DNA from: a virus
Taxonomy: Duplodnaviria; Heunggongvirae; Uroviricota; Caudoviricetes
Virus record (IMG/VR): IMGVR_UViG_3300031413_000570
Reading direction: 5' to 3' (one strand)
DNA length: 64,000 nucleotides
A model generated the notes under the pieces. The model did no database searches. It saw nothing but the letters and a program-made list of their open reading frames with translations, and had not been told where the DNA came from. A program made the position numbers and the translations under genes. Shown here one piece after another: positions 36,561 through 37,939 of this stretch. Numbering within the stretch: position 1 is the stretch's first letter; each line of letters opens with the position of its first letter.

Positions 36561-37865
36561 TCAGCTACCAAATTCGCAAAGATAACGTACGGCCACCTGG
36601 TCAGTATTCCAAATAATCATTTCGTTGTTTCGAACATTGCAGGTTCCACCACGAACGCTGATGGACTGGTAAGGCTTACCAGAAGTGCCAACACCCTTGT
36701 GTGCCTGGCGAAGGGAGTTGTAGTCCCAACGCTGAGGGCGGTACTCATGACCCATGACAACATCATTCAGAAGCATGAAGCAGTTCTGGCTGGTGCGTGA
36801 ACCATCCCAGTAGCCGTTGGCGTAGTTCAGGCTTTTGGTGCTCTGGTCGCTGAAGTAAACACCATCACCGAACATTCTTCCTGTCACAGGGATACCGCTA
36901 CCTGCGTTAGGCACGAACAGTCCCTTTGTGAGGATGGAGAGAACGTTAGACGCTTTCGTTCCGTGCCAGAGTTCACGTACGTTTCCGTACTTCTTCTGGG
37001 CAGCTTTGTAAGCTTCCTTGCCCTTGACATCTTCCACTGCGTACACGTTCACCAGTTTGAGGTTACGTGATGTGTGCATGTTGTTGCGTGTTTCTTTGAA
37101 CATCTTGTTGATGCGGTCGAAGTCTTTTCCGCTGTCGGAAATCTTCGCAAGGTTCATGCGGAACAGGTCTTTGTGAGCATCGATATCGAACTTGTCTTCG
37201 TCATCTGTGGTGACCTGAGCTGTGGTGTTTCGCCACTGTACAGAATCTTCAAGCTGCTTCAGGAAGTCCATCTGCTTGGCGAAGTTTTCCGTCTTCAGGA
37301 AGTCCTCTTCCCAACCACGACGGTACCCAATGTTCTGAGGAATGAGGGTGAGGTAGTCTTCCAGGAGCTTGGTCTGCCCTGTTTTCTTCTTCTGCATCTC
37401 ACCAATGAGGTCTCGGGCAGAGTTGATGGAGCAAAGGTCAACAACACCGAGAGCAGTCTTTACAGTTCCGTCGTCGGTAATCTTAATCATACCACCAGAC
37501 TGTTCCATAATCTGGTGCTGGTTTGATGCGATGAGTCGGTCAATGAGGTTGCTGATGAGGCTGTCTCCGCTGTCCTTGGACAGGAACTTCTTCGCTACTT
37601 CGTCAAGGTGGTTGACGGAACTCTTAACTGTGACACCTGTGCTGACAATAGGTGAGACCTTGTAGCCCTTTTTCTCCTTGGACTTGATGGCCCGCTCGTA
37701 ACCAATTTTGCCTGTTGTCTCAACGGAGCTCGCTCCTTCAGCTCCTACACGTCCCCAGCGCTTGGTGACGACGTTAGCATCATCCAATGTGACATGGTAG
37801 AACTTGTTGTTGTTGTTCTTTGTGTCAACCATGACAAGCATTGTCTCTTCAATGATTTTTCCCAT
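36561..37865 (-). CDS. poly(ADP-ribose) polymerase homolog (WGR domain plus PARP catalytic domain, H-Y-E)
   Basis: WGR motif KRWGRVG. Catalytic elements LWHGT, GVYFSDQSTKSLNYA and RNNEMIIWNTDQVAVRY align with PARP1 HGS, GIYFAD..SKSANY and YNEYIVY. Start taken at MGKIIEE. Confidence 0.7.
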   Translation of the reverse strand: MGKIIEETMLVMVDTKNNNNKFYHVTLDDANVVTKRWGRVGAEGASSVETTGKIGYERAIKSKEKKGYKVSPIVSTGVTVKSSVNHLDEVAKKFLSKDSGDSLISNLIDRLIASNQHQIMEQSGGMIKITDDGTVKTALGVVDLCSINSARDLIGEMQKKKTGQTKLLEDYLTLIPQNIGYRRGWEEDFLKTENFAKQMDFLKQLEDSVQWRNTTAQVTTDDEDKFDIDAHKDLFRMNLAKISDSGKDFDRINKMFKETRNNMHTSRNLKLVNVYAVEDVKGKEAYKAAQKKYGNVRELWHGTKASNVLSILTKGLFVPNAGSGIPVTGRMFGDGVYFSDQSTKSLNYANGYWDGSRTSQNCFMLLNDVVMGHEYRPQRWDYNSLRQAHKGVGTSGKPYQSISVRGGTCNVRNNEMIIWNTDQVAVRYLCEFGS

Positions 37866-37871
37866 GCTCTT

Positions 37872-37899
37872 ATTATAGCACGTTTTCAAAGTTTTGCAA
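37872..37899 (-). promoter_or_regulatory. candidate sigma-A-type promoter TTGCAA-N16-TATAAT, with the -10 box 6 nt before the PARP ATG (near-leaderless transcript)
   Basis: Read on the minus strand. Spacing is canonical. Confidence 0.35.
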
Positions 37900-37939
37900 C
37901 TCTAATTTTGAGTCAAAAAAGCACTCTCATCAGGCATTT

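Follow-up and report, generated by a model that had tools for sequence, protein, structure and literature searches.

We report a gene for a poly(ADP-ribose) polymerase (PARP) within a 64,000-nt stretch of DNA (the whole of which is hereafter called the window) from the IMG/VR record IMGVR_UViG_3300031413_000570, filed under Caudoviricetes. The protein has the architecture WGR - helical regulatory domain - ADP-ribosyltransferase (ART) domain, and in the reading that we consider probable it is a functional clade-1-type PARP, transcribed as a leaderless unit and expressed early within the NAD+/ADP-ribosylation toolkit of a phage-like element. As phage PARPs have already been annotated and reviewed, the gene alone will be no surprise to specialists; what is new here is the conserved leaderless geometry, its occurrence at a third of the window genes and the co-location of the PARP gene with variable ART genes and NAD+ genes. 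The gene and the parts of its product were placed as follows:

36561..37865, minus strand: PARP gene, 434 aa (MGKIIEE...EFGS*), WGR - helical regulatory domain - ART, from the open reading frame (ORF) and its translation
37659..37844, minus strand: WGR domain, aa 8-69 (PF05406, E 9.5e-11), containing NNNNKFY (aa 17-23) and RWGRVG (aa 36-41)
37164..37607, minus strand: helical (regulatory, HD-like) domain, approx. aa 87-234, from profile alignment and model, containing YLTLIPQ (aa 171-177)
36570..37127, minus strand: PARP catalytic (ART) domain, aa 247-432 (PF00644, E 2.2e-29)
36963-36965, 36855-36857 and 36621-36623, minus strand: catalytic triad H301, Y337 and E415, respectively, from motif alignment

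According to the ORF list and translation, the gene runs on the minus strand from an ATG at 37865-37863 to a stop codon at 36563-36561. Its frame is open as far as a TTG at 37889, but a longer ORF from that codon was dropped, as the TTG sits within the promoter described below, and both the gene callers and all close homologues begin at MGKI. Plus-strand ORFs within the gene (e.g. 37074-37526) were dropped as shadows of the PARP frame. Over the 1305 nt of the gene, three related strains with 96-97% identical DNA show 43-56 nucleotide differences from the window; the corresponding codon differences are 41-54 synonymous and 2-3 non-synonymous, and because the former far outnumber the latter, the PARP gene is under clear purifying selection.

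Both Pfam matches of the protein, to the WGR and to the PARP catalytic domain, exceed the curated cut-offs. An alignment of 39 relatives (42-76% identity) shows no variation at H301, G302, Y337, K344, Y348 and E415, and the profile of these relatives aligns end-to-end with human PARP1 WGR-HD-CAT (4dqy_C; E 1.1e-38, profile positions 8-436), pairing LWHGT with LWHGS, GVYFSD with GIYFAD and NNEMIIW with YNEYIVY at the H-Y-E positions of PARP1. The proposal of a WGR-PARP with an H-Y-E triad, made in a first-pass annotation of this DNA, is borne out by the Pfam matches, this invariance and the PARP1 alignment; the catalytic Glu, on which that assignment had been made to depend, is present as E415, aligned and invariant. 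The motifs quoted at that time are found at aa 35-41 (KRWGRVG), 299-303 (LWHGT), 335-340 (GVYFSD) and 413-419 (NNEMIIW), and only 'SKSLNYA' needs correction, the sequence at aa 342-349 being STKSLNYA.

The helical regulatory domain between WGR and ART is recognised by profile, by model and by full-length structural match. In the family profile it pairs with the PARP1 HD (TALG with MPLGKLS, YLTLIPQ with FYTLIPH), and in the AlphaFold2 model (mean pLDDT 78.6) aa 87-234 are helical. The best PDB matches of the model in Foldseek are DNA-break-bound PARP2 and PARP1 (6x0l_P, E 1.5e-26; 4dqy_C, TM 0.66), with TM 0.63-0.66 for the full-length model against PARP1/2 WGR-HD-CAT. Taken alone, the WGR domain is best matched by those of PARP3 (2eoc) and PARP2. 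Break binding and activation of PARP2 require N127, K130, Y132, W151 and R153, as found by mutagenesis (PMC6294510). PARP2 N127/N128/N129/K130/Y132/W151/R153 correspond to N18/N19/N20/K21/Y23/W37/R39 of the window protein; N18, N20, K21, Y23 and R39 are invariant in the family alignment and N19 is nearly so, so that five of the seven equivalents of PARP2 DNA contacts are invariant, while W37 is not among the invariant or nearly invariant columns. No equivalents of PARP2 K179, K183 and Y201 could be assigned with confidence in the protein.

Human PARP2 and PARP3 share with the window PARP the WGR - HD - ART order without zinc fingers or BRCT, the H-Y-E triad and the donor-site residues; the WGR motifs NNNKFY and RWGRVG are nearly identical, and the PARP2 break-binding residues are identical. 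In contrast to the human enzymes (approx. 20% identity), the window protein has no disordered basic N-terminus, no HPF1 or chromatin context, a shorter loop ahead of the catalytic Glu and an Ala at the position of PARP2 Q159, and its activity is a prediction. A closer likeness in size (approx. 430 aa) and in WGR - helical - ART order is found in the bacterial PARPs of Herpetosiphon aurantiacus (HaPARP) and Clostridioides difficile CD160 (CdPARP). Both are active in vitro and make poly(ADP-ribose) (PAR), HaPARP in a DNA-dependent manner, and for each of them the organism is reported to have a PAR glycohydrolase as well (PMC5966428, PMC8120803). Unlike them, the window PARP resides on a giant phage-like carrier, and no PAR glycohydrolase was found in the 64 kb and its right flank.

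Relatives of the gene are also found in other phages. PHROG 23333 matches the protein at 3.8e-64, 16 GenBank phage records carry a PARP relative, and several of these are annotated as poly(ADP-ribose) polymerase, among them those of Xanthomonas phages XacN1 (BBA65562.1) and Xoo-sp13, Klebsiella phage vB_KpM_FBKp34 (QQV91759.1) and Cellulophaga phages phi4:1 and phi17:2. A PARP relative is present on at least 13 IMG/VR contigs, and this count, like that of 85 from a genome scan, derives from short peptide patterns and is a lower bound, not a frequency. Phage PARPs have been listed since 2014 (PMC4245714), and reviews count PARP/PART among the most frequent viral ARTs or mention PARP in jumbo phages (PMC4245714, PMC7824862, PMC9503650, PMC11662467); the earlier statement that PARP homologues are rare in phages was therefore overstated. 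The annotated phage PARPs are full-length homologues with the same domain order and 25-41% identity over 95-99% of the protein (that of FBKp34 is annotated with the same three domains), but they sit in other branches of a neighbour-joining tree. Identity of the window protein does not exceed 41% with any GenBank phage copy and 46% with any named cellular protein.

Several points weigh against the reading as a functional polymerase. PARP3 has the H-Y-E triad and is nevertheless a mono-transferase, so that the triad is no proof of polymerase activity. The residue equivalent to PARP2 Q159 is A45, and the loop preceding the catalytic Glu is shorter than that of PARP1, whose TSLLY is an insertion relative to the family. 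PARG, macrodomain and ARH genes were not found with Pfam in the 64 kb and the 10 kb past its right end, out of a genome of approx. 0.8-0.9 Mb; these 10 kb contain SNF2 and HATPase genes only. No biochemical or genetic characterisation of any phage PARP was found in the searchable literature. Furthermore, Pfam PARP_reg (PF02877) was not detected in the protein; it was detected in some of the relatives, and Pfam often misses the regulatory domain in bacterial PARPs (PMC5966428).

A possible, though doubtful, alternative is that the enzyme is a mono-ADP-ribosyltransferase, or a PARP3/PARP2-like modifier of DNA ends (5'-phosphate), rather than a polymerase; in its DNA-end version, marking or capping would affect the termini of the element's own genome or of host chromosome fragments, for example, and PAR would not be placed on proteins. 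The WGR domain, which taken alone most resembles that of PARP3, the shorter acceptor-side loop ahead of E415 and the negative search for PARG, macrodomain and ARH in the 64 kb and right flank are all in line with this. PARP2 and PARP3 ADP-ribosylate DNA termini in vitro. That PARP2 modifies DNA is also stated in PMC8190142. Set against this are the conservation of E415 and of the entire donor site, the formation of PAR by both assayed bacterial WGR-PARPs (PMC5966428, PMC8120803) and the fact that the PARG search covered only a small part of the genome of approx. 0.8-0.9 Mb. A polymer, a single ADP-ribose and an adduct on DNA ends are all conceivable products.

The second part of the favoured reading, leaderless transcription, is based on the sequence immediately upstream of the gene, the features of which, together with those of its downstream end, are:

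37894..37899, minus strand: -35-like hexamer TTGCAA, read from the sequence
37872..37880, minus strand: extended -10 TGcTATAAT (TG 37880-37879, TATAAT 37877-37872), ending 6 nt before the ATG
37863..37865, minus strand: ATG and predicted transcription start (seventh base past the -10 hexamer), from standard sigma-70 geometry
36504..36558, minus strand: perfect hairpin of 23 bp that starts 3 nt past the stop (folding energy -45.1 kcal/mol, z -9.2 versus shuffles)
37940-38056, minus strand: 38-aa ORF with a C-terminal hydrophobic segment (MDEYSAFEKRNKVIRVVAIVTVIAVAGSGIAAAFFGAF), conserved in related strains

On the minus strand the order is TTGCAA, a 16-nt spacer with TG near its 3' end, TATAAT, AAGAGC and the ATG start codon. 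The AAGAGC stretch, which holds no Shine-Dalgarno (SD) motif, is only 6 nt long and therefore leaves no space for one. The window is poor in sigma-70-type sites with a score of 10/12 or more (four on both strands, as compared with a mean of 11.3 in Markov simulations); two of the four are TG-extended (0.77 expected), both of these lie 5-6 nt ahead of an ATG start, and the PARP promoter is the best such site in the window. Three strains retain TTGCAA, TG, TATAAT and the 6-nt gap unchanged, with substitutions falling into the spacer between -35 and -10 and above -35. In a sister clade (67-76% identical proteins) the -35 is TAGACA, the spacer is 17 nt long and the 6-nt gap reads AGAGCT or AGATGC, and TGgTACAAT or TGaTACAAT still ends exactly 6 nt before the PARP ATG. 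The TTGCAA-N16-TATAAT arrangement noticed in the first-pass annotation is thus present, unchanged in these three strains and more than chance. As the position of the -10 is conserved in relatives while the -35 and the flanking 6 nt change, a leaderless PARP mRNA, with transcription from the A of the ATG, is a well-supported prediction.

The start-proximal -10 layout is not specific to PARP and is a property of about a third of the window genes. Of 68 genes, 11 have YGNTA beginning precisely at -15 from the start codon (0.47 expected), and 10 have TGNTA there (0.28 expected). In 23 of the 68 genes a YGnTAnnnn box ends 4-9 nt upstream of the start, mostly at exactly 6, as compared with 4% of random positions. 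An SD-like motif is lacking in 18 of these 23, of which 17 begin with ATG, the start codon preferred in leaderless translation; 21 other window genes have an SD-like motif only. Box-bearing starts include 360(-), 2440(-), 4888(-), 10130(-), 11542(+), 31135(+), 33502(-), 33952(-), 35399(-), 36460(-) and 59117(+); the class comprises all four ART genes (11542, 33502, 35399 and 36460), a T4-type RNA ligase (10130) and RNase H (16137). The ART, ligase and RNase H boxes are mostly TGTTAGAnn with no -35, and the PARP box comes nearest to the consensus of sigma-70. The same enrichment is seen in the sister clade but not in six other PARP-carrying large viral contigs tested, XacN1 having a single such gene; several distant PARP loci have SD-like leaders instead of the leaderless layout, and most are without the enrichment at -15. 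Boxes common to PARP, the four ARTs and about a third of the genes point to widespread leaderless expression and possibly to a co-regulated ADP-ribosylation set.

Leaderless units are known from Actinobacteria, Deinococcus and lambda cI transcribed from PRM, and have in common with the window genes a -10 ending approx. 6-7 nt before AUG, no SD motif and, nearly always, ATG starts. In comparison with them, the box in the window is usually TG-extended and often TAGAnA rather than TANNNT, and its transcription starts are predicted only.

It is unlikely that the TGnTAnnnn box is instead a translational or regulatory signal, or a site for a phage factor, and that PARP is transcribed with a leader from further upstream. 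Such a role would suit the many other genes in which the box has neither the canonical final T nor a -35; boxes ending in A (TAGAGA, TAGAAA) are common, count against the leaderless reading as a whole and may therefore involve a sigma factor other than that of the PARP promoter. It would also suit the region upstream, where the 38-aa ORF at 37940-38056 ends approx. 40 nt before the PARP -35 hexamer, with no clear terminator between this ORF and the PARP promoter, so that read-through transcripts with a leader are possible. The PARP copy itself, however, is near-consensus sigma-70 (-35, TG, TATAAT and canonical spacing) in a window otherwise depleted of full sigma-70 matches, relatives conserve the position of the box and not its flanking sequence, and the ATG starts of 17 of the 18 box genes without an SD-like motif fit leaderless translation. 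Transcription of PARP from its start-proximal promoter therefore remains the preferred reading.

At the other end of the gene, the pairing of the hairpin after the stop codon is kept by compensatory changes in the relatives L001 and L023, and the hairpin is probably a terminator that closes the PARP unit. With a start-proximal promoter and a hairpin directly after the stop, the PARP gene looks monocistronic. Perfect 17-23-bp hairpins stand directly after stop codons at 21513-21557, 45892-45928 and 59937-59978 as well as at 36504-36558, one of them between convergent genes; such stop-adjacent hairpins, without the usual T-run, appear to be the standard gene-end signal of the element.

The window matches a stretch of a 307,689-bp contig at 100% identity, and a NucS identical to that of the window was found on a contig of 788,683 bp. 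Members of the sister clade were recovered from several samples and by several assemblers, on contigs measuring 878,479 to 883,042 bp; syntenic relatives include L008, L025 and L026 and the contigs Ga0308161_1000006 (883,042 bp), Ga0308164_10000004 (878,612 bp) and ERZ27247389 k141_483817 (880,409 bp). Their nearly equal sizes (878-883 kb) across samples and assemblers suggest complete genomes of approx. 880 kb; the largest phage genome reported is 735 kb (PMC11662467, 2024).

Based on gene content, the carrier is probably a phage, as the first-pass annotation had assumed. Besides PARP and the ARTs, the window encodes two Rnl1 ligases, PNKP, NucS, RNase H, DnaB, DnaK, ribonucleotide reductase (RNR), dCMP deaminases, MazG and an intein-bearing Dcm, a non-structural set typical of jumbo phages. 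The qualification is due to the virion genes: no capsid, portal, terminase or tail genes were found in the 64 kb and flanks by a PHROG scan of 30 proteins and by Pfam, so that the virion and packaging genes that define a tailed phage are missing from the sequence covered, and most of the element lies beyond it. At the DNA level, neither the locus nor the 25 kb around it matches any GenBank phage, and relatives are found only at the protein level; DnaK and PARP have relatives in the published huge phages of the LR756xxx series.

It is quite unlikely that the carrier is a giant extrachromosomal element other than a phage, or the reduced genome of a cell. In addition to the lack of virion and packaging genes in the 64 kb and flanks, this would accommodate the approx. 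880-kb contigs of the relatives, which exceed the 735-kb record (PMC11662467), and the fact that the element was not recovered in the short-peptide-pattern scan of IMG/VR. It is contradicted by the absence of tRNA and tmRNA genes and of any Rfam match in the 64 kb, by the absence of ribosomal and core housekeeping genes among the annotated proteins of the window, by the many ORFs without known relatives, by the jumbo-phage-typical set (T4-type RNA ligases, PNKP, ARTs, RNR, dCMP deaminases, MazG, Dcm and DnaK) and by the DnaK and PARP relatives in the LR756xxx phages. A phage-like element thus remains the preferred description.

An actinobacterial host, proposed in the first-pass annotation, is only hinted at. 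The presence of NucS and the frequency of the leaderless layout are in keeping with Actinobacteria or Deinococcus. Among named cellular PARPs, those of Microbacteriaceae come closest (41-46%; Leifsonia sp. Leaf264, Rathayibacter, Agromyces and Microbacterium), followed by those of mycobacteria. The phylogenetic comparison with bacterial PARPs that the same annotation had proposed places the PARP clade in a part of the neighbour-joining tree that also holds actinobacterial PARPs, although this tree has no support values and gives a rough placement only. The G+C content of the window (about 45%) and the NadE, which is of the NF001979/PRK00768 model type, weigh against such a host; the close matches of NucS are all metagenomic proteins and give no host clue, and no other link to a host was found. 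The 90%-identity cluster to which the sister-clade PARP belongs also contains a protein deposited under the plant Rhynchospora breviuscula (KAJ1683543.1, encoded on a 54-kb contig); it probably stems from a microbial or viral contaminant in the plant assembly and gives a hint of a plant association of the element.

The genes around PARP that relate to ADP-ribosylation and NAD+ are:

35420..36460, minus strand: ART-like gene, 346 aa, with YRG / STT / ERE motifs (PF03496 E 4.9e-4, below cut-off), preceded by CGTTAGATA-6 nt-ATG
34389..35399, minus strand: R-S-ExE ADP-ribosyltransferase, 336 aa, with YRG / STS / ERE motifs (PF03496 E 4.2e-13), preceded by TGTTAGAGA-6 nt-ATG
32536..33502, minus strand: R-S-ExE ART, split into ORFs of 170 aa and 154 aa, with TGTTAGAGA-6 nt-ATG upstream
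873-1766, minus strand: NadE (PF02540 1.1e-65; NF001979 347 bits, cut-off 250)
4906-6429, minus strand: NadD-like adenylyltransferase, with a weak TIGR00482 match
7156-8121, minus strand: second, divergent NadE-like gene (PF02540 1.7e-30)

The three ART genes lie directly downstream of PARP, and the adjacency of PARP and ART is kept in the sister clade. The ART cluster seen next to PARP at first inspection consists of real ART genes by PF03496 and by motifs, with the motifs of the R-S-E ADP-ribosyltransferases (T4 Alt/Mod, C3/VIP2-like). In the split gene, the C-terminal ORF (32536-33000) matches PF03496 at E 5e-16 with YRG / PTS / ESE motifs; near 33000 the window carries one A more than three related strains, where the gene is undivided and encodes 321 aa, and the split gene is either a pseudogene or an assembly error. 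The 336-aa ART (34349-35408) is replaced by a 202-aa gene in L001, L023 and L024, with aligned flanks 89-96% identical, and the ART cluster beside the conserved PARP is a variable hotspot. Unlike in the window, no ART is annotated within 5-6 kb of PARP in XacN1 and FBKp34.

NAD-jumbo phages encode NAD+ synthesis together with NAD+-consuming enzymes, including PARP (PMC11662467). The window likewise combines NadE, a NadD-like gene, four ARTs and PARP, although only a part of the NAD+ pathway is visible in the 64 kb. The NadE and NadD-like genes are flanked by genes for a 2OG-Fe(II) oxygenase and a racemase-like protein.

By analogy with PARP2/3 and the assayed bacterial PARPs, the WGR domain would bind a DNA nick or end, and its binding would release the block that the helical domain imposes on the NAD+ site; the activated enzyme would then ADP-ribosylate itself and nearby DNA-bound proteins, possibly building chains. 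Host RNA polymerase would transcribe the gene from the extended -10, starting at the A of the ATG, and the long hairpin would close the unit. The near-consensus host-type promoter and the box class common to the ARTs suggest early co-expression; PARP and the R-S-E ART genes would probably act together early in infection, in host takeover or genome maintenance, with NAD+ supplied to the toolkit by the NadE and NadD-like proteins. Being compact, with intact residues, purifying selection and a defined promoter and putative terminator, this PARP is a clean candidate for characterisation.

A role in conflict rather than in repair or takeover, in which PARP upon DNA breakage would burn NAD+ or modify proteins and so exclude superinfecting phages or kill the cell, like a defence or abortive module, is very unlikely: conflicts between phage and host and among phages often involve ARTs and enzymes that consume NAD+ (PMC9503650), and the neighbouring ART repertoire varies among strains in the manner of a conflict hotspot, but none of the PADLOC defence models matches PARP or its ART neighbours, the NAD+ synthesis genes on the element fit supply and not depletion, and purifying selection keeps PARP conserved beside variable neighbours.

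A more far-reaching version of the favoured reading is tentative, and we think it unlikely to hold in full: PARP would be the conserved core of a self-supplied ADP-ribosylation system (PARP, strain-variable R-S-E ARTs and NadE/NadD) in a phage-like clade with genomes of approx. 0.8-0.9 Mb, about a third of the window genes being leaderless and PARP sensing breaks or ends. If this were true, the breaks or ends sensed by PARP would be those of the giant genome or of a host chromosome that has been shredded, and PARP would poly-ADP-ribosylate DNA-bound proteins or cap DNA ends; a bacterial virus would then have its own counterpart of the DNA-damage signalling of eukaryotes, one that does without PARG, and the carrier clade would exceed the 735-kb record for phage genomes.

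Some further observations concern the four ARTs and other genes of the window. The fourth ART (11542-12513) is embedded in an RNA-repair set, between Rnl1 (8889-10130) and PNKP (12565-13470), and a second Rnl1 is located at 23550-24671. An N-terminal Cys motif, C-x-(K/P)-P-x3-4-C-x2-H (MCYPKPGPRCSAH, CAKPKGAYCRLHNP), is common to the four ARTs and an NT5C-like nucleotidase (protein starts 11542(+), 33502(-), 35399(-), 36460(-) and 40787(-)) and is not found in PARP; it matches no Pfam family, and may represent a zinc knuckle or serve as a signal for targeting or packaging. Four large proteins (38154-39896(-), 60000-61277(-), 61407-62795(-) and 62891-63985(-)), two of them with DUF285 or He_PIG domains, have a pilin-like hydrophobic N-terminus that is nearly identical among them (AAIDLASIMVGVIxIGLIGGVIxATVFAxIPWxQDKAAK), and genes for a signal peptidase S26 and a Wzy_C protein lie near them. 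Finally, a 905-aa fusion of a dNMP-kinase-like protein and a cytosine-5 DNA methyltransferase, interrupted by an intein (Hint or intein-splicing domains), is encoded at 43074-45791(-).

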